Shown: positions 3,742 through 24,122, counted from the stretch's first letter. The stretch: DNA of 64,000 nucleotides from an uncultured delta proteobacterium (GCA_963823335.1 CAWGLD010000001.1:1-64000), one strand, 5' to 3'. The notes: a model not told the origin generated them from the letters alone. Translations and numbers: made by a program.

Positions 3742-5655
3742 ATGAAAAAATTCAAAAACAAAGACATCTCCATATCAGACCTGGCAAATGAATTTCACGT
3801 CAGCAAGGCGGCTATTGAGCTTTATGGTGTTCATCGGTTAATACAACCCATTTCCGGCAAAACAACCCGGCCGGTCTATCGCCCCCTCGATAAAGCACGT
3901 TTAAAATTTATTGCCAGAGCCAAAGAAGCGGACTACACCATTGGCGATATAAAGGACCTGATCGGAGTCCTCGATCTCGAAAAAGACGAAATTGACCAGA
4001 TTGAAGAAAGCCTGGTCTATTGTAAAAATAAATCTGCTGCACTCACAAAGACCCTGGAAGACCTCGATGCCCTGGAACAAATCAATGTCACCTGCGATAT
4101 AGAACTTCTGGAAGCGTATAAAACTGATTTGAACAATTTAAAATATGGACTGGATATTGCGCCCATAACAACAGCTGCGCCGGATCCTATTGCTGAAACG
4201 TCCAGTGCAAAACCCAGAACGCTTGTTTACAGCCATCTTGACGACCAGGTTAAAGCCGCTACGCCTGCTATCGTCCCAAAAAAATCACGAAGGTCTCTGG
4301 CTGTTGTTGCGGGGATCTTTCTGGTGGCCATATCCGGCTATTTATACCTTGGTGGTGACCTTCTTCCTGACATGTCAAATAATTTGGTGGCAACCCCCAA
4401 GGTGGATCCGGTCGAAATGACTACTGAGACAGCCACTTCGAACCAGACCGATGAAATAAATCTGTCTGAATCAGATACGAATACAGATGGCAGTGTCGAC
4501 ACCCTCACCAATAAACGCGCCTCAACAAAAGCGCCGATTTTGTTGAACGACTTCCCGATATTAAAAAATGAGTTGAATTCCCCGTCTACCGACCCCATGG
4601 CAAGCATGCCCGAGACCTATTCAGACAAACAAATCCAGGACACGAAAAATACCCAGGCCCTGCTGGACGTCATCAACGAATCCCGGGAAAAAACGCCCAA
4701 ACCGGGCACGCCCGAGAAAGAAAGGACAGAAGATGTCTTTTTAAAACAGCTGTTTGCCGATATGCAAAAAAAATATGATCAACAGGCACAAATTCAGAAA
4801 CCGACCACCAATGACACTAGCGGAAGAAATGCTGCACCTGAAGAAATGAGCGAGACAAAGGAAGCCCAAGACCTCACGCCCGTGGACATTCCAAACGACG
4901 CTTCCCAGACTGACAAAACCATGCCCACGACAACAAAGACGTCCCCGATAATAACCACAACTACACCAGAAAAAGCTGCTCCTCTGGTAGTTAGTCGGGC
5001 ACCTGCATCTTTGAATACCGATACACCATCCACGAACACGCTTGCACCTCCGCAATCCGTACCAAGCCCCAAACCCGCGTCACCGGTTATCCGGCCAAAG
5101 TCTTCGACAGAACAGCCAACCGCTTCAACAAAGAAAGCGGAAACATCCATACTTTCAAAGCGTGATGAATCAGCGAGCAAAGTAATCACACCGCCGAAAC
5201 CCAAGCCGCTACCTGAACCTGAGCCCAAACCGGATCCCAAGCCTAAACCTAAACCTGAACCCAAACCAAAGGCAATTCCTCAAAAACCAGCCAATCCGGA
5301 AGCATTGAAATGGACCCAGAAAAGCTATGAGAGCGTGATGGCCGACGATGCCGGCCAAGCGATCATCGCGGCGTCCGTAGCGATCACACTCGATCCGAAC
5401 CTGGTGAATGCCTATATCAATCGCTCATGGGCCTACAGCAAAAAAGGGCTCTACGACAGAGCTATCCAGGATTGTGACAAAGCGCTCGACATCGACAATG
5501 ACAATGCGCTGGCTTACAACAACAGGGGACTGGCCTTTCAAGGTAAAGGCGACATGGACAAGGCCAAGGCGGACTACGAGCGGGCATGTAAGCTGGGCTT
5601 TGATATCGGCTGCAAGAATTATCGGGAAGTTGTAGAAAGCAAGCTTGCTGAATAA
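3742..5655 (+). CDS. MerR-HTH / single TM / Pro-Thr-rich linker / TPR protein
   Basis: N-terminal MerR-like ISDLANEF...RLKFIARAK..YTIGDIKDLI; KKSRR followed by a hydrophobic helix; PEPKP run; TPRs AYINRSWAY and AYNNRGLA. Confidence 0.8.
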   Translation: MKKFKNKDISISDLANEFHVSKAAIELYGVHRLIQPISGKTTRPVYRPLDKARLKFIARAKEADYTIGDIKDLIGVLDLEKDEIDQIEESLVYCKNKSAALTKTLEDLDALEQINVTCDIELLEAYKTDLNNLKYGLDIAPITTAAPDPIAETSSAKPRTLVYSHLDDQVKAATPAIVPKKSRRSLAVVAGIFLVAISGYLYLGGDLLPDMSNNLVATPKVDPVEMTTETATSNQTDEINLSESDTNTDGSVDTLTNKRASTKAPILLNDFPILKNELNSPSTDPMASMPETYSDKQIQDTKNTQALLDVINESREKTPKPGTPEKERTEDVFLKQLFADMQKKYDQQAQIQKPTTNDTSGRNAAPEEMSETKEAQDLTPVDIPNDASQTDKTMPTTTKTSPIITTTTPEKAAPLVVSRAPASLNTDTPSTNTLAPPQSVPSPKPASPVIRPKSSTEQPTASTKKAETSILSKRDESASKVITPPKPKPLPEPEPKPDPKPKPKPEPKPKAIPQKPANPEALKWTQKSYESVMADDAGQAIIAASVAITLDPNLVNAYINRSWAYSKKGLYDRAIQDCDKALDIDNDNALAYNNRGLAFQGKGDMDKAKADYERACKLGFDIGCKNYREVVESKLAE

Positions 5656-5684: not shown

Positions 5685-6914
5685 ATGATAAATCACAAAT
5701 GGTCGGTCGTACTTTTGCTTGTTTTTCTCCACTTGTCTCTCAATTCCTGGGCAGACAACGTAAATCCAACCAGTGCCAAGGGCCCGTCATCCATCGCAAA
5801 ACCCCTGAAGACCATAACAATCCAAGTGGCGTCTCTAAAATATGAAAACAAGGCCGGGCAAGAGTTGACACGTCTCAAATCCCATGATCTGGACGCATTT
5901 GTCCATCATGAAAGCGTTGCCGAAAAAGGAATGTGGTATCGCATCTATGTGGGAAAGTTTGAAAACAGAGACGAAGCCAAAAAATTTGCCCAAAAAATTA
6001 AAGATCGAGGGATAATATCGGGGTTCTGGATCAAACAAATCGAGATACCTGTCGATCCGGTAAAACCCTCACAAACAGCAATAAGTACAACCGAGAAACC
6101 CGATACAAAAACCGACACGCTGCATGAAAAACAAGTGCCTCCAGCGGCAGTGGTCGAAACACCTAAGACAGTTCTTCCGTCGGAGACAAAACCATCACGC
6201 TCTCAACCATTGGCAGAAAAGTCGAATGAGCAAACACTATCACCCCCTGTACCCCCGGTCGAAAAACCAAAAAGGACCATGACGAAAAAAGAGCTAAAGG
6301 AGATTTTTCCCGCAGAGGACATTCATGATAAGCAACCCATCTCACCAGTACAGGGCATCGCGGTTCAGGGTCCCGGCGAGCAGGAAGGAAGCAGCAAGTT
6401 TTCAGTGGGGGTCAAGTCAAGCTACTTTCTTGCGTCAGATACGAAAGATTTCAAAATTAAACGAACCGACGGAGGCGACCAGTATTCCTGGTCGATCAAA
6501 AGCCCAAAGGTTTACAACTCGCTGCTGTCAAACTATCAAATCAATCCGACAATCTCAATCGAGGCCGGTATCGAAAGGGCTTTTTTTACAAAACTCGATA
6601 TCTGGCATCTCACGATGGGTCCAAAATTTGAATTCAAAAAGATCGGTATGTTAACCCCCTATGCAAAAGGCAGTCTGGTTATGGGTCATATGAAATGGGA
6701 TGACGCCCCCGGAGATTTTGACACGGCCTGGGGATGGGAAGGGGGATTCGGTGTTTCCTTCAGCAGATCGAACATACAATTTGGGCTTGAAACATCCTAT
6801 CGGGCTATTACATACGATTACAACCGGCCATCTGACAACGACGTTACAGCGACGGATAACCAGATCGATTTTTCAGGATTTGCGTTGTCGGCAACAATGC
6901 GTTACCGGTTCTAA
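5685..6914 (+). CDS. SPOR-domain + outer-membrane beta-barrel protein
   Basis: Signal peptide; SPOR IQVASL...WYRIYVGKF..RDEAK; Pro-rich linker; amphipathic strands ending in MRYRF. Confidence 0.8.
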   Translation: MINHKWSVVLLLVFLHLSLNSWADNVNPTSAKGPSSIAKPLKTITIQVASLKYENKAGQELTRLKSHDLDAFVHHESVAEKGMWYRIYVGKFENRDEAKKFAQKIKDRGIISGFWIKQIEIPVDPVKPSQTAISTTEKPDTKTDTLHEKQVPPAAVVETPKTVLPSETKPSRSQPLAEKSNEQTLSPPVPPVEKPKRTMTKKELKEIFPAEDIHDKQPISPVQGIAVQGPGEQEGSSKFSVGVKSSYFLASDTKDFKIKRTDGGDQYSWSIKSPKVYNSLLSNYQINPTISIEAGIERAFFTKLDIWHLTMGPKFEFKKIGMLTPYAKGSLVMGHMKWDDAPGDFDTAWGWEGGFGVSFSRSNIQFGLETSYRAITYDYNRPSDNDVTATDNQIDFSGFALSATMRYRF

Positions 6915-7087: not shown

Positions 7088-7819
7088 ATGGACAAATCTG
7101 AAATGCCCCTTGCCGCTGAATTGAAAAAGACATTGCCTCCGGAAAATCAAACCAATTTCCTTTCAAATCTTAAATACCTTATGGTTATTTCCAAGGCCTA
7201 TTTAGAGAAATACCACCTTGACGATGATCAAAAAAAAGCCACGATAAGAACCGCAAATGCGGTTTTTAACGAATGCAGAAAATGGGAAGGCTTATTCAAT
7301 AAATATAGATCCCCTTTCAAGAAAAAAAAGAAAAATGAAAGCGACCATTTCTTCTATCAGCGTGCTATACTGCTGTCTGTAATGATTAAATCTTATTGTA
7401 TAGGAAATCTCATGGGAAATAACAGAAATAAATCATTAGCAAAAACAACCGATTTTTTGTGTGGTGCGCTGAATATTAAAGTGGGCAACACGGATTTTGA
7501 AAAACATGGTTTAGTGCTTCAAACCAAAGAGATCTCTCAAAATGAGCAAAAAATGAATAGCATCAAAGATAAGAGAAGGTATGAAAGGATAGAATACGTT
7601 ACATCTGTGAGTGTCATCATGGACAAGAATAAATATATAACGGAGTTACTGAATCTTAGCCTTGGCGGTGCCTTTATTTCTGCTGACAGCATTCCACATA
7701 TAGAAACAGGAAAACAGGTTTCATTAGGGATTCCATTTGTGAACAAACCTAATGAAATCGAAATTAAAGCGACCGTTCAACGACTTTTTGGAATGGGTGC
7801 AGGTGTCGAGTTCTTTTAA
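7088..7819 (+). CDS. PilZ-domain protein with an uncharacterised N-terminus
   Basis: RRYER and NLSLGGA motifs, ending in GAGVEFF. Confidence 0.75.
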   Translation: MDKSEMPLAAELKKTLPPENQTNFLSNLKYLMVISKAYLEKYHLDDDQKKATIRTANAVFNECRKWEGLFNKYRSPFKKKKKNESDHFFYQRAILLSVMIKSYCIGNLMGNNRNKSLAKTTDFLCGALNIKVGNTDFEKHGLVLQTKEISQNEQKMNSIKDKRRYERIEYVTSVSVIMDKNKYITELLNLSLGGAFISADSIPHIETGKQVSLGIPFVNKPNEIEIKATVQRLFGMGAGVEFF

Positions 7820-7820
7820 A

Positions 7821-8058
7821 AGGATCATCTCAAAAAGAGTTGATCCAAATTAAGGGTTCAAGGATTCCAGGGGTCCAGGGTTCGAGTGAGATGAAGCGAG
7901 ACATCAGCTAATTGCTTAAGAATTATATGAAAAAGGGAAAGCTTCAGGAATCAAGAGAGGAGCTCGGAGATGAAGAGAGAATGCTAAAAGCGATGATCAA
8001 ATCCCTGGAAAACAAACACTTGAATCCTTGAATCCTGGACTCCTTGAACCCTTTCTCC
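7821..8058 (+). mobile_element. Decayed four-helix-bundle gene cassette, copy 1
   Basis: Homologous to 35359-35677; encodes LLKNY fused to MKKGKLQ...RMLKAMIKSLENKHLNP*; flanked by inverted 8-mer arrays. Confidence 0.7.
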
Positions 8059-11000
8059 TTAAAAAATGTTGAAACGGTAGGATATTTCTAAAGCAATACC
8101 CGACGTGTCCAGCTTATCGTCTGCGGAATAACCATCCTTAGGCCTGTCCGCATCGTGTTTATAAAAAGCATAGCTCAACCTGACTTCCACGTTCCCTTTC
8201 TGGAACCCTGTACCGATTGAAAACCCCATTGCGGGATCATATCCGGAAACAGGATAATCCAAATCAGCATCAATATATCGGTAGCCAATGCCTGCGAGCA
8301 CCAGTGGGCGCATGGCGCCTATCCACCTTGGGTTGTATTCTTTCGCGTAATACACACCGGAAAGAGAAAAGGTATAGCTGTTTAATGTGGAGTCGTCACC
8401 CGAGGGGGCGTTTTTTATGTTTCCGCTGTAAAAATCGTAGGCAAAGGTCAACTCCACTGAAAAATTATCTGAAACGCCATAACTCCCTCTCAAAAAAGGA
8501 TAAATAGCGCTGTCGACTTCATTGGTGATGGACTCGCCTTCATCGGAAGCTTTGACCTCAGATCCGATATATGTGTAACCAAGACCGGCATGTAAATACC
8601 ATGGTTTGCCCTTTTTGGGAGAGTCAGCGGTGGTTCCGGCGCTGCTGACTGCCGCCGGGGTATAAGCATCCTGCTTTGTTTCGAGTTTTCTTAACTCCTC
8701 CAATGTTGATTGATCTTCCTGGAGAGGTGTTGGCACGCCGACATCAGGAACGGTTTCGGCCGACTCGGACTGGGGGGGGGCCCCGGCCGCAGCACCTTCG
8801 GCGGCGTATGAATTGGAAACGAACAGGGATGCCCCCAGCAGGATCGCTGTTACAAGCATCAGCATGCTAAGGCGATGACGTACAAAACGATTCAGGGAAA
8901 AGATAGAGACAACAGCCAGAAAAAAAAAACCGATACCTCTTGTCGGATTCGATGGCCTCCCTTCTGATCGTGTGGTCTCGATAAAACAGCCACCGCCGCC
9001 ACCATACGAGCTATCATCACCCCCCGCCGAAGAACCCGGTGGTTCTGTAACGAAAGAATCATCGAGACCATAGTCGGTACCTGCGTCATTGGTAGCATAG
9101 GCACTCACATAATAGGTGGTCTCGGGCAAAAGACCTGTCATCCTATACTTAAATACATAAGGCACAGCACCTGAATAGGGCCCCATAGATCTACAGTCAT
9201 CATTATCGTCTAAGGTTGGCCCTGGATTTGTGCTCCAGCAAAACCCATGATCATCGGGTGAGGGTTCTCCCAAGTCTGTAATACTGCCATTCGCCGTTGC
9301 CTTTGTATCGCTGATAAGACTGACGGCAAAGGTGGTCACCGTAGGTTCTATAAAAGTGGTAAAAACAACTTCACTACCATAAACAGTTGTTAGGGCGTTT
9401 GTGGCATAGGCCCGCACGTAATAGGTCGTTCCAGGCGACAAGCCTGTCAAATCCGAAGTGAACGTACCCTCTGCCGGCACCCCTTCCTTCGTAAGGCTGT
9501 CAGCGGTGGTGGGAGGCCTGCCACGATCTGTCCCGGTGGTGTTCCAGCAGATGCCGTGCTGTGTGGCAGCGGGTGCCCCCAGGTTCGTGATCTCGCCCCC
9601 GCCTGTTGCGGATGTTTGGTCGATATCGGTTACTTCATCCGTTCCCACGGCCATGGCATCCGGGTCGGACCTAAATGGTTGTGTCGACCCATAGACTGTG
9701 CCGGCACTATTGGTCGCATATGCCCGCACATTATAATTCCTGAAAGGTACAAGGGGGCTGATGACGGATTCAAACGGATGAGGAACCTGGCCGAGGTAGG
9801 CGCCTAACCTTGATATGCCGTCATTGTTATTGATGGTCGGGATTGTTGGCGCTCCGCTCCAGCAAATCCCATGTTGCGTTAAAGTAGGTATACCCCGATC
9901 GGTAATGGTACCGTGTCCAATAGCATCATCTTTGGTTACATCGCTCACCGCCTGGGTCGTCACCACAGGGAGTTTCGGCAACGTTGTAAAGGTCAACTGA
10001 TCGCCGTAGACCGTAGCGACATCGTTGGTGGCATAGGCTCGGATATAGTACCTGGTATCCGGTGTAAGCCCGTTGATATTGCTTGTAAATACGTCAGCCG
10101 AGCCAGCAGCCCCCTCATCGGTAGAATCAAGACTTTGGGCAAGTGTCGAAAATGGAATCGTATTCCAGCAAACACCGTGCTCCGTGGGATTGGGCGCACC
10201 AAGAACGTCAAAGTCGCCACGTCCCAAAGCAGTGGTCGTACCGATATTGATCACTGACAGTGTCGACACTTCCGGTGCTTGTTGCTCTGTTCTGAAAGAC
10301 ACCTGGTTTCCGTATGATGTCCCGCCAGCATTGGTGGCGTAGGCACGCACATAGTAAGTTGTATTGGGTGAAAGACCGGTAATATTCGCTGTAAAGGCAC
10401 CCGTGACGTACGCCGCACCCTTATCCGTAGAACTATCGGCAGTCGTTGGTGTCCCGCCGGTATTCCAGCAAACTCCGTGCGCCGTGGGGTTCGGCACCCC
10501 CAGACTGGTGATATTACCGTTACCGGTGGCCGTAGAGATGGTTATGCTCGTTACTGCCTGGGTCGTCACTGTCGGTGGCTGCTGGTTCGTAGTAAACGAC
10601 ACCTGACCTCCGTATGATGTCCCGGCCGTGTTGGTGACATAAGCCCGCACATAGTAAATCGTATTGGGTGAAAGACCGGTAATGTTCGCTGTAAAGGCAC
10701 CCGTGACGGACGCTAGCACCCTCATCCGTAAGGCTATCACCAATCGTCGGTGTTCGGCCGGTATTCCAGCACACACCGTGCGCCGTGGGATTCGGCACCC
10801 CCAGACTGGTGATATTGCCGTTGCCGGTGGCCGTGGTGGCGGTAAGGTCGCTAACTGCCTGGGTTGTAACCGTGGGCGCCTGCGCTAAGGTCTTAAACGA
10901 CACTTGGTTGCCGTATGATGTATCGCCCCCGTTGGTAGTGGCATAAGCCCGCACAAAATAAGTCGTATTGGGTGAAAGACCGGTAATATTCGATGTAAAG

Positions 11001-11275
11001 GCACCTGTGATGGACGTGAACCCTCATCCGTAAGACTGATCACCAATCGTCGGTGTTCCGCCGGTATTCCAGCAAACACCGTGCGCCGTCGGATTCGGCG
11101 GTGCTGCTCCCAGATCGGTGATATCGCCGTTGCCGGTGGCCGTCGTTGTGGTGATGTCGCTCACATTTTGGGTTGTTACTGTCAGAGTTTGCGCCAAAGC
11201 CGTATACGGTATCAGCAGAAAAAACAGAAATAAAAAAAGTAGAATGGCAAATTTATGTGATATTTTCAGTTTCAT
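8059..11275 (-). CDS. Surface protein: signal peptide, 7 FN3-like repeats, GGGGGCFIET, TM, second signal peptide, OM beta-barrel (frameshifts in the 5' repeats)
   Basis: ORFs 11024-11275, 10520-10954 and 8059-10776 join into one gene; repeat signature HGVCW..YYVRAYATN..YG; ends EISYRFNIF. Confidence 0.8.
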
Positions 11276-11625
11276 AAACCCTCATCATTATTTAATGACC
11301 GTCCCTGTGCAAGGGTTGGCATACAGACCTTGTTTCAAGTTTAGGACTAAGATAATATGGTTCGATCAACACCTAAAATTAAAAATAAACGCTTGCTATA
11401 TATGATGAATCCAATCATTCTCCGTGACAACCGTTCCATCATTCCAGCAAAAATAATTGTGCGAACACGACACATTCTTATCTCTACAATAATTTCAATG
11501 ACTTATAAACGAATGTATATAAATATCACAAAATCGTGCATTTGACTACCCATATTATTATGGCAAACGATTACCTAATTTACAGCACAAAATTACCTAA
11601 TTGCATGGCATTAACATATTTAATG

Positions 11626-11690: not shown

Positions 11691-11736
11691 TACATAACGC
11701 TGCGTACTATCTCAAGTTAATGACAGTGAATATGGA

Positions 11737-12895
11737 TCATCGCTTGCGCCGTTTGAAATATAAAAATGCCAAAACAACAGCGGAAAAAATAATCACGCCA
11801 TGCATTAACACCATGTTGGCGGTGTTCAATGTCTCTGATAAAACATAACCCATAATCATCTCCACCAATACCAGCAGATCCGTCCGGATTGTTTACAGTT
11901 TTGAATGACACTTCATTGCCATAGGATGTGCCGGCTGTATTGGTCGCATACGCATTTACATAATAGGTCATGTCTGGTAAAAGCTCTGTTAGGACAAATG
12001 AGAAAGGCCCGGTCTCATTAGCTTCTCCCTGCTCAGTTATATAGTCACCCAGGTCAGGCATGCCGGTTGTGTTCCAGCAAAAACCATGCTGAGTCGGGTT
12101 AGGTGAGCCGACATCTATAATCGTTCCATTCATCGTGGCACTGATGCTGCTTATATCGTCAATGTCCTTTGTGCTTACAATGGGTGGAGAAGAGCTTGTC
12201 GAAAACGTCACCACGTTTCCGTAAGCGGTGCCTTCATCGTTGGTGGCATACGCCCGGACAAAATATTTCCGGTTGCTTTTGAGGCCTTTGATCTCGGAGG
12301 TAAACGGGCCGGTTACATAAAGCGCGCCCTCCTCGGTTCTTTTGTCATCGATGGTCGGAGAACCATCCTCGTTCCAGCAAACGCCATGTTGTGTGGGATT
12401 AGATATGCCCAGATCTTCCACGGTGCCATGACCCAGGGCCGATTTTGACTTGATGTCCGTTACGGGTTGGGTCGTCACCGTTGGGATGAACCTCGTTGTG
12501 GTAAATTCCAGCACATCGCCGTAAGATATGGCTCCCCACCATTCCCTGGCATAGGCCCTGACAAAATAGATTGTCCCGGGCTCCAGACCGGACATATCAG
12601 AAGAGAAATTAACAGCATTCCTTAAGGGCCCTTCGGCCTCGTTGGTACTGTTATCTTCTTCCAGATTGGGATCACCCGTGGTATCCCAGCAAACCCCGTA
12701 TGCGGTAACATAAATTGGATTCGAAACAACACCGTTGCCCGTGGCATTATTATATGAAATATTTGTAACATTTTGCGTTATGGCGGTGGCTGCGGAGGCC
12801 GGATTTTGAAGGACAAGGAGCAGCAACAGCGACATCACACAGTAACTAATTGTTTTTATATTCATTTTTAACTTTATCAATCCCATTCTTGGCAT
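11737..12895 (-). CDS. Exported protein with 3 FN3-like repeats and a CFI-TM-basic sorting tail (one extra base near 11836)
   Basis: ORF 11717-12895; removing one base after CFI gives CFIETLNTANMVLMHGVIIFSAVVLAFLYFKRRKR* with stop at 11737. Confidence 0.75.
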
Positions 12896-22991: not shown

Positions 22992-24122
22992 ATGGATGCC
23001 CTGATTATCATGGTTCTGGCGTTTATCGGATACATCGTCATGTATCCCCAGTCTGTCCTGGCCGTCTGGGTGGAAGTGCCCATCGCCATATACCTGGGCT
23101 ATCTCATCTATAAGAAAGGGGCCAACGTCATGACATGGTCCATTTATGCCGTGATTGCCATGTATGTGTGCGTGTTTCTCGGTCCCTACCTGCCCTTCAA
23201 AATGCCTGCCATTGCCGGCATTCCCCCCACAGGTGTGTGGACCATTATCCTGCTGGCATACGGGTTTATCGCGTCCACCCTACCGGTAACCACCCTGCTG
23301 CAGCCCCGTGATTTCATAAACTCCCATCAGCTGGTGATTGCCATGGCGCTGCTGGTTCTGGGTGTGATGGTGGCAGCCTTCGGCGGCAACCTGAACATCG
23401 TAGCGCCGGCCGTACAGGCAACCCCGCTGGAAGCTCCCCCCATGTGGCCGTTCCTTTTCATTACCATCGCCTGTGGTGCAATCTCGGGCTTCCACGCCCT
23501 GGTCTCTTCCGGTACCAGCGCCAAACAGGTCCGCAATGAAAACGATGCCTTGTTTGTGGGCTACGGCTCCATGCTGATGGAAGGCGCCCTGGCAACCCTG
23601 GTCATCATTGCCGTGGCTGCAGGTATTGGCATGGGATATACAACCAAGGCGGGTGAAACACTTACCGGTGTGGCTGCCTGGACCACCCACTATGCTTCCT
23701 GGGCGGCGGCTAACGGTCTGGGCTCCAAGATTTCGGCCTTTGTGGACGGTTCGGCCAACATGATCATGACCCTGGGTATTTCCAAAACGTTCACCCTGGC
23801 CATCATGGCTGTTTTCGTGGCATCCTTTGCCGGCACCACCCTGGACACGGCCACCCGGATTCAACGCTATGTGATCGGTGAACTGGGACAAAGTCTCAAG
23901 CTGAACTGGTTAACCGGCCGCTACGTGGCCACCGCGGTGGCCGTCGGAAGCGCTCTGATCCTGGCTTTTGCCACCGGGGCCAGTGGCAATGGTGCCCTGA
24001 AACTGTGGCCGCTGTTTTTGGGGTTGCCGGACCAATTCTATACCGCTCATTTTTTGCCCATTCACACAGACATGTTCATGAAGTTCCGCCTGAGGCGCTA
24101 TTCGTATTCGAACGCAATCTAA
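22992..24122 (+). pseudogene. cstA: Carbon starvation protein CstA with internal and C-terminal deletions
   Basis: LLQPRDFIN, PFLFITIACGAISGFHALVSSGTS, GYGSMLMEG, TTLDTATR; N-terminal helices missing; breaks after LWPLF. Confidence 0.75.

Follow-up and report, generated by a model that had tools for sequence, protein, structure and literature searches.

A CFI-tagged adhesin fused in frame to an outer-membrane barrel precursor in an uncultured deltaproteobacterium

In a 64,000-nucleotide (nt) stretch of DNA from an uncultured delta proteobacterium of sediment (GCA_963823335.1 CAWGLD010000001.1:1-64000, analysed as a whole and called the window here), a gene on the minus strand encodes a large adhesin joined in one frame to an outer-membrane beta-barrel. 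The fusion consists of an adhesin with a CFI-box-like tag, a hydrophobic helix and a basic tail, plus a complete barrel precursor with its own signal peptide. Our reading, to which we give a probability of roughly 70%, is that this fusion is real and that its product is split after the second hydrophobic helix into two polypeptides. A sequence-only reading of the window had proposed that signal peptidase separates a CFI-tagged passenger from a cognate barrel; all elements that it named were confirmed at the positions given, and its interpretation as a whole is partly supported.

Layout of the gene and the predicted internal signal peptide

The focal open reading frame (ORF) codes for 905 amino acids (aa) on the minus strand, as do all parts of the gene described here, and is open in a single frame from 10884 to 8062, with its stop at 8059-8061. 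In this frame FN3-like repeats come first, then GGGGGCFIET and a hydrophobic helix; behind RFVRHR, a helix like a signal peptide ends in SYA/AEG and leads through a linker to a barrel that ends in YRFNIF. The passenger (8989-11191) is an array of FN3-like repeats with units of the type HGVCWNT...TTYYVRAYATN (Pfam fn3 at 1.2e-15, with related Ig-like matches), and upstream of it the precursor has a predicted N-terminal Sec signal peptide, MKLKISHKFAILLFLFLFFLLIPYTALA/QT (11192-11275), with a site placed by the -3/-1 rule. The Cys-Phe-Ile (CFI) motif, a putative sorting motif by profile NF041763 and by family comparison, lies at 8980-8988 behind a Gly/Asp/Ser-rich stretch. A polar spacer, ETTRSEGRPSNPTR (8938-8979, from the sequence and family comparison), leads from the motif to helix 1, GIGFFFLAVVSIFSLN (8890-8937), whose 16 residues are predicted from hydropathy to be the stop-transfer anchor of the tag, and an AlphaFold2 (AF2) model has a helix there (residues 53-71 of P0001). 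The basic loop RFVRHR (8872-8889) counts +3 with no acidic residue. It is followed by helix 2, LSMLMLVTAILLGASLFVSNSYA (8803-8871; AF2 helix 78-94), the putative internal signal peptide, in which signal peptidase I is predicted to cut at SYA/AEG, from 8803 to 8802. The Pro/Ala/Glu-rich linker (8602-8802), presumably periplasmic, starts with AEGAAAGAPP and holds a short predicted helix, TLEELRKLETKQD (AF2 helix 132-144), the predicted local distance difference test (pLDDT) being low elsewhere in it; the small barrel, identified by Pfam PF13505, AF2 and Foldseek, occupies 8062-8601.

The second hydrophobic segment had been taken for a signal peptide, and comparison with homologues bears this out. 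In alignment A1 (16 sequences) the stand-alone proteins P0016, P0019, P0022, P0032 and P0038 have their N-terminal signal peptides in the same columns as helix 2, and the loop arginine (R75) is nearly invariant. Judged by the -3/-1 rule and this alignment, helix 2 fits the signal-peptide pattern, with RFVRHR, then LSMLMLVTAILLGASLFV, then SNSYA/AE. Across the family the predicted sites have AxA-like endings (SYA/AE, AQA/AE, GQA/GD, AVA/GE and others), mostly with acidic residues next. The loop is net positive in all 28 fused proteins (+1 to +9, with at most one acidic residue), so that by the positive-inside rule it should be cytoplasmic, and RFVRHR is predicted to play two parts, ending the tag on the cytoplasmic side and providing the n-region for the signal peptide behind it. 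We infer that signal peptidase I cuts after SYA. The predicted new N-terminus of the barrel part is AEGAAAG, and a semi-tryptic peptide from it would start AEGAAAGAPPQSESAETVPDVGVPTPLQEDQSTLEELR. No Shine-Dalgarno-like motif precedes the in-frame start-like codons near the loop or helix 2 at any of five loci, so the barrel is most likely made within the long precursor, with no separate start inside the gene.

P0051, P0049, P0020 and P0039 have a linker of just about 3-10 residues from the predicted site to the barrel's first strand. In such proteins the barrel would have to be cut free, because 3-10 residues cannot bridge helix 2 in the inner membrane and a barrel in the outer membrane. These short linkers exclude a two-membrane topology for the members that have them, and so bear on the view that the fusion is real and stays uncut after helix 2, with the helix hairpin either a permanent inner-membrane anchor that tethers the barrel or not inserted in the membrane at all. 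Since helix 2 also sits where stand-alone homologues have their cleaved signal peptide, since the family keeps small residues at -3/-1 and an acidic start of the mature part, and since an 8-stranded barrel has no lumen for a helix, we regard an uncut product as improbable, even with the linker of the focal protein and its close relatives (about 67 residues, Pro/Ala-rich), which could span part of the periplasm. At the start of this linker A100, A101, E102, G103, A105, A106, G107 and P109 are invariant in 6 sequences (41-73% identity). A (Y/F)xPAAxSS motif also recurs in the linker of the closer relatives; together with AAEGAAAGAP, this is more conservation than a plain linker needs.

The barrel is modelled as an antiparallel, 8-stranded fold of the OmpX/OmpW/OmpA type. 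A scan of just the last 273 aa gives 34.0 bits with Pfam PF13505 (OMP_b-brl; cut-off 28.7), a profile that is not listed for the whole 905-aa ORF. In the AF2 model, built on 49 sequences, pLDDT is above 90 over residues 168-345. The best Foldseek matches are OmpX (2m06), OprG (2x27), OmpW (2f1v; target-normalised TM-score 0.65), the OmpA transmembrane domain (1bxw), NspA (1p4t) and Ail (3qra), with the AIDA-I and NalP translocators at ranks 28 and 40 and TM-scores of at most 0.25. Outer-membrane barrels typically end in a C-terminal aromatic beta-signal, and LEISYRFNIF fits it. Type Va autotransporters likewise combine an N-terminal signal peptide, a large passenger and a C-terminal outer-membrane barrel in one polypeptide. 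Their 12-stranded barrels have a pore-spanning helix, and no hydrophobic hairpin or second signal peptide stands between passenger and barrel. The focal protein differs in its 8-stranded barrel and in the two hydrophobic helices and basic loop before it, and is not an autotransporter. Since the fold is 8-stranded and not that of an autotransporter translocator, the barrel is of the anchor type, with no pore for the passenger.

A recurrent family of fusions and the partner question

Queried with the last 347 residues, 1.84 billion cluster representatives gave 62 matches in a full HMMER search (E <=0.001), of which 49 were fetched; the remaining 13 are all <=216 aa. The fused layout is present in frame in 27 of the 49, with CF[IVM], a spacer of 0-16 residues, a helix, a basic loop, a second helix with a small-residue end followed mostly by an acidic start, and a C-terminal barrel. 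Homologues are thus not always two separate genes, an outcome that by the sequence-only reading would have refuted it, and the fusion is conserved. CF[IVM] is found at the tag position in 28 of 28 fused proteins (the 27 and the focal one). Their barrels range from 23 to 78% identity and their passengers, of up to about 2400 aa, are unrelated to one another: FN3-like arrays, Calx/cadherin-like, TSP3-rich and choice-of-anchor types, the longest protein reaching 2648 aa. Four others are cut or frameshifted versions of the fused layout (P0003, P0005, P0010 and P0048), 13 seem to be stand-alone barrels that begin with a signal peptide, and 5 (P0033-35, P0041 and P0042) have SPOR or SH3 before the barrel, like the gene at 5685-6914 of the window. 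The only homologue with a database name is P0016, a 'porin family protein [Desulfobacteraceae bacterium]'.

Among genomes of the same genus the fusion is in frame in G004 (77% over the last 347 residues) and G008 (56%), and it is also in frame in G029, from another family (36%), and in G359, from elsewhere in the phylum. G001 has the same order of elements with a frameshift inside helix 2. The family is rare: only 2 of 401 phylum-wide genomes match at E <=1e-5 with a single query, and 7 of 41 close relatives at E <=0.001. A locus search with alignment A2 returned only 2 loci, like those of G004 and G001, and two metagenome scans with the stand-alone proteins P0029 and P0022 found nothing.

Whether the barrel serves the adhesin with which it is made is a separate question. 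It could be cleaved off and act as a general small outer-membrane or cell-wall tether, fused or split freely with no coupling to the passenger. This is possible, if rather unlikely, and it gains from the mutually unrelated passengers and from the occurrence of the barrel family with SPOR, SH3 or OmpA_C domains and with no passenger. It gains as well from the barrel tree (48 rows; P0062 was too short and was dropped), in which fused and stand-alone forms are interleaved and the fused label requires 12 changes, at least 11 of them forced by well-supported branches. The interleaving is compatible with repeated fusion and fission, with truncated gene calls, or with both, and such calls may account for part of it. 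P0038 (217 aa on a 1430-nt contig) falls in the same 90% cluster as the fused P0075 (1745 aa). More reliable stand-alone members are P0047 and P0056, on contigs of 151 kb and 540 kb, and P0016. Against free association, the fusion is kept in 27 of 49 homologues across the whole range of barrel identity with differing passengers, and such retention is hard to explain without selection for co-production; TraA and TraB, a comparable pair of Myxococcus, work together (PMC3325183). A complex prediction between residues 100-347 (the barrel part) and residues 1-52 (the passenger end and tag) of P0001, with alignment A3, scored 0.01 and gave no verdict.

Integrity of the reading frame

The in-frame junction that the sequence-only reading described is upheld by independent contigs, which have no stop between the two hydrophobic segments. 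Four DNA runs were compared as contigs. The contig of X1 record 1, possibly from the source sample, spans 8363-9114 with no gap over the junction or the run of ten T (T10); that of X4 record 18, from a different study, spans 8411-8974 gap-free with a single substitution, at 8906, which gives helix 1 a Phe in place of a Ser; and that of X6 record 27 spans 8713-8893. Region 8411-8974 is in this way covered by gap-free contigs from two studies. These contigs speak against an artefact in which adjacent adhesin and barrel genes were joined by an assembly or homopolymer error, through a miscalled T10 or a lost stop. The same holds for the in-frame fusions of G004, G008, G029 and G359 and of the 27 homologues, which come from several sources and mostly lack FFF at that place, and for the two alternative frames after T10, both of which wreck the conserved helix/basic/helix sequence. 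An artefact is extremely improbable and already largely refuted, despite the single-base frame breaks that do exist in the assembly (in the paralogue at 11836 and upstream in the focal gene), the frameshifts of G001 inside helix 2 and of G004 upstream, a junction that contains one of the genome's ten longest homopolymers, and the precedent of Myxococcus traA and traB, which are separate ORFs with a 4-base overlap (PMC3325183).

The T10 run itself (8920-8929; A10 on the plus strand) codes for FFF within helix 1 and had been suggested to be a slippage switch. As a slipped-strand phase switch it would convert an anchored adhesin with a barrel into a truncated, unanchored adhesin with none. The genome has no A/T run longer than 10 and just ten of that length, this one included, and a shift of one base either way leads to a stop 11 or 20 codons on, ahead of the basic loop, with no transmembrane or basic tail. 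In G029 (L006, G029:C70; 36% identity) T11 and then A7 stand at the corresponding position, where helix 1 ends (...VFFFLRKK...). Set against this, T10 is kept exactly and in frame in G004, two contigs have no length variant (contigs drop rare variants), and the other A/T10 runs of the genome also lie within open frames, as KKK or FFF. FFF is missing at that place in most family members, and the sequence at the position of the run in G008, G029 and G359 differs from the focal T10. The suggested switch found no support here, and we consider it very improbable.

Further upstream the gene is interrupted. The frame that carries the N-terminal signal peptide, from 11275 down, has an in-frame stop at 11024-11026. 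Beyond this stop it is open again as far as 10523; the long frame is already open from 10884, and a frame change falls within this overlap (10523-10884). If the stop and the frame change are not assembly indels, they leave the 905-aa ORF without its signal peptide (11275-11192). Single-base indels relative to the window were found in X4 contigs at 11038 and 11017 and in X2 at 10713, all weak at a depth below 5; they flank the stop or sit in the frame overlap, a hint, and no more, that indels of the assembly or the strain account for the breaks upstream. At 22992-24122 a CstA ORF has a Pfam CstA match that starts at profile position 140 of 560, so that this gene too may be cut by a change of frame. 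Taken with those at 11836, 11024 and 10523-10884, it suggests single-base indel errors in the assembly. In six RNA runs 8-13% of the sampled words of 7900-11400 were found.

The paralogue (11737-12895, minus strand) consists of a signal peptide, FN3-like repeats, CFI, a transmembrane segment, KRRKR and a stop, with no barrel. The claim that it ends after the transmembrane and basic segment, and so marks the module boundary, is right about the boundary: in G006 (L007) the orthologue is intact and has its stop after ...CFIETLNTINMVLMHGVIVFSGIVLAIIYFKRRRR. In the window the listed paralogue ORF (11717-12895) holds the FN3 array and CFI, and the tail, ...GVIIFSAVVLAFLYFKRRKR (stop at 11737-11739), is in another frame, owing to a 1-nt insertion relative to the G006 orthologue at 11836, directly after the CFI codons. 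Some runs have no cover over this frameshift region, e.g. 11787-11955.

Among the neighbouring genes on the other side, a SPOR-domain protein on the plus strand (5685-6914) has a C-terminal barrel distantly related to the focal one (22% identity, E 1e-6), and a PilZ-domain protein is encoded at 7088-7819. The SPOR-barrel gene, the PilZ gene and the focal gene are the same three neighbours in G004 (L002). Directly upstream of the SPOR-barrel gene lies a gene for a 637-aa protein (3742-5655) with an N-terminal MerR-type helix-turn-helix, one hydrophobic segment, a long Pro/Thr/Lys-rich low-complexity region and C-terminal tetratricopeptide (TPR) repeats. Just downstream of the focal gene, 7900-8068 is a short, widely repeated sequence with a 34-codon frame (7928-8032) ending in ...SLENKHLNP and the repeat TTGAATCCTTGAATCC; contig depth there is 64-368 in all four runs vs about 5 over the focal gene, and loose contig ends cluster at 8017, 8053 and 8058.

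The CFI tag, its processing and known systems

Profile NF041763 (sort_motif_CFI, 'CFI-box putative sorting motif') matches the window at 8962-9030 with 14.6 bits (E 0.019; cut-off 15.9) and two other proteins of the genome with 16.1 and 12.9 bits; it gave no match on the 23-aa piece of the paralogue. Like the CFI-box of NF041763 and of NF041770 (CFI-box-CTERM), the focal tag has a G/D-rich stretch and then C-F-I. Unlike a canonical CFI-box it is internal and is followed by a helix, the basic loop, a signal peptide and the barrel, 309 residues in all after the Cys, whereas in the matching proteins of the genome the motif is C-terminal: the canonical CFI-box secreted proteins end 4-5 residues past CFI with no membrane helix, e.g. 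...NNSTCFIRSLGM (16.1 bits). In the relative P0003, whose barrel part is 78% identical, NF041770 matches at 1.4e-19 and 69.6 bits over profile positions 17-69 of 69, before the same hairpin and barrel. Choice-of-anchor domains are a class defined by their position next to sorting signals, and a choice-of-anchor U domain stands right before the tag in 4 of 6 scanned fused relatives. In open frames of at least 200 aa over the whole genome (G000), CFI falls within the last 12 residues in 9 cases against 1.7 expected, and CFV in 7 against 1.9. Other ORFs ending in CFI lie in C4 near 539947 (G11-CFIEALN), in C6 near 196416 (CFIGLVK, with 1983 aa upstream) and in C10 near 26809 (CFIQSTK).

Within 1-30000 of the window, around the focal gene, no sortase-like or CPBP gene was found. 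Outside the window, at G000:C5:260464-266538 (L024 6465-12538), two secreted CFI-box proteins (...NNSTCFIRSLGM and ...GEDTGCFISAVLS) flank a TonB-dependent receptor, and behind the second of them, convergent with it, are genes for a CPBP/Rce1-like protease (G000:C5:264397-265038, L024 10395-11039) and a 507-aa polytopic membrane protein. The protease matches PF02517 at 1.4e-18 and is similar to the myxosortase relatives MrtJ and MrtS below their cut-offs. In 7 of 8 loci of genus relatives it is kept together with a neighbour ending in ...GFG(D/E)DTGCF[IV]xxxx, which is weak evidence, being synteny within a genus. From this arrangement the protease and its CFI-box neighbour are a candidate CaaX-like sorting pair. 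A GspD secretin scores above its curated cut-off in the genome. Two other sorting profiles were set aside: NF058595 ('invert_tail') is weak on the hairpins of P0007 and P0003 and unspecific, since every one of 14 control genomes has matches to it, always below the cut-off, and NF033207 (midcut_by_XrtH) is not significant on P0007 (E 0.07). Literature searches found no paper on the CFI-box and none on 'lipo-invert', and a 2023 myxosortase preprint contains neither 'CFI' nor 'Desulfo'.

On the reading of a real fusion that is split after helix 2, the N-terminal signal peptide would route the passenger through Sec, helix 1 would halt transfer with the basic loop remaining in the cytoplasm, and helix 2, as an internal signal peptide, would restart translocation. 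Signal peptidase I would then cut after SYA and release the barrel part (AEGAAAG...), which could fold into the outer membrane via the beta-barrel assembly machinery (BAM). The hairpin of helix 1, loop and helix 2 would keep the passenger in the inner membrane until the CFI-box is processed, by analogy with MYXO-CTERM through lipidation of the Cys and a cut by a CPBP-type intramembrane protease. By the same analogy the passenger is probably lipidated at its Cys, cut by a CPBP-type enzyme and brought to the surface by a type II system. We infer surface display and a partner role for the barrel, which may be the outer-membrane partner of the passenger as TraB is for TraA.

Several points weigh against this reading. 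The cleavage after helix 2 is deduced from the -3/-1 rule and the alignment, and the focal gene, broken twice upstream, could be a pseudogene in this strain. The focal tag scores just under the curated CFI-box cut-off, and NF041770 (cut-off 40 bits) has no match on the focal protein or its tail, its best in the genome being 17 bits elsewhere. The analogy with MYXO-CTERM processing may fail, because the canonical CFI-box proteins of the genome have no helix after the motif, and the CPBP gene does not discriminate, since it is present in 27 of 41 relatives, many with no detected fused gene. Finally, 13 homologues look stand-alone, a class that is unreliable and an upper bound because P0038 clusters with a 1745-aa fused protein.

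Two further ideas concern the enzyme. In the bolder one, the two cuts act in concert: signal peptidase exposes the conserved new N-terminus of the barrel part (AEGAAAGAPP...), and the CFI-box enzyme, a transpeptidase and not a plain protease, joins the new C-terminus of the passenger to that amine, splicing out the hairpin. Such 'membrane-hairpin excision' is a long shot; if true, it would leave the adhesin covalently bound to its own outer-membrane barrel. In the milder version, the CF[IV] box may be a periplasmic CaaX-like signal for the neighbouring CPBP protease, which may tolerate tails of 4-8 residues, of a helix with a basic tail, or of a helix, a basic tail and a barrel precursor.

The closest described protein is MXAN_5598 of Myxococcus xanthus, in which an internal MYXO-CTERM lies between an adhesin region and an outer-membrane beta-barrel with an OmpA domain; its authors read it as a TraA-like/TraB-like gene fusion whose N-terminal part is proposed to be processed and surface-anchored (PMC11980579). 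Both proteins combine a large adhesin, a mid-protein tripartite tag with a Cys, and then an outer-membrane barrel. The focal protein differs in its tag, which is CFI-box-like and not MYXO-CTERM, in its hosts, which are uncultured deltaproteobacteria with one homologue from Desulfobacteraceae, and in having no OmpA domain, which its relatives P0020, P0027 and P0039 do have. MXAN_5598 is also a single case as described, whereas the present family counts 27 fused cluster representatives. The second signal peptide, which re-uses the basic tail of the tag as its n-region, is a further difference and is not mentioned for MXAN_5598 in the accessible part of PMC11980579. One similar fusion was thus already noted, in passing, in this 2025 mBio paper (PMC11980579); the CFI-box-like tag, the host lineage, the recurrent family and the second signal peptide set the present case apart.

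The parallel with TraA and TraB drawn by the sequence-only reading proved apt in light of the 4-base overlap of their ORFs, which function as a pair (PMC3325183), and of the fused analogue MXAN_5598 (PMC11980579). In both systems a Cys-tagged surface protein goes with a downstream envelope protein, which in the case of TraA and TraB works with it, and because the two ORFs overlap by 4 bases, loss of the stop in traA/traB would yield the focal architecture. Unlike that two-gene system, there is one gene here, and its passenger has no PA14 or Cys-repeat domains. TraB is an outer-membrane barrel with an OmpA domain (PMC11980579); the NCBIfam TraB profile NF033763 (cut-off 700 bits) does not match the focal barrel (P0002), and in relatives it matches only over positions 320-509 (TSP3/OmpA), far below the cut-off. 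In the MYXO-CTERM pathway the Cys is thought to be lipidated, the CPBP protease MrtX cuts and the type II secretion system exports (PMC11980579). By the published definition, the focal tag is of the same build, with the Cys motif CFI, the membrane helix GIGFFFLAVVSIFSLN and the Arg-rich tail RFVRHR (PMC11980579). In library scans at E <=10 neither the focal protein nor its tail matched a MYXO-CTERM model, the presence of this model in the library not having been separately checked.

Sorting signals and signal-peptidase sites in the middle of a precursor have parallels in other systems. Abdul Halim et al. reportedly described in 2017 an ArtA-dependent Haloferax substrate with its sorting tag away from the C-terminus; that substrate and 'midcut-by-XrtH' (NF033207) share with the focal protein a mid-precursor tripartite signal after which the downstream part is removed, with different enzymes and motifs. 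The FbcH cytochrome b/c1 precursor of Bradyrhizobium japonicum is a membrane polyprotein cut by signal peptidase at an internal signal sequence. It belongs to a respiratory complex, unlike the surface protein with a barrel described here. A literature search on internal signal peptides, polyproteins and the outer membrane gave nothing relevant among the matches listed.

The finding matters for genome annotation, since such ORFs end up split or truncated in gene calls, as in P0003, P0010 and P0038, and it indicates that a precursor can carry the curated CFI-box motif at an internal position. The fusion sets passenger and barrel at 1:1 and in the same location, and offers a compact construct for studying both cuts and the suspected partnership. 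It links two questions, namely how Cys-tagged surface proteins of the MYXO-CTERM-like and CFI-box kinds are processed, and why they so often form pairs with small barrels or with OmpA-like proteins, TraB being an example. Polyproteins that signal peptidase cuts at an internal signal peptide are rare in bacteria; with its 27 or more cluster representatives, the family described here would be a recurrent case in nature.

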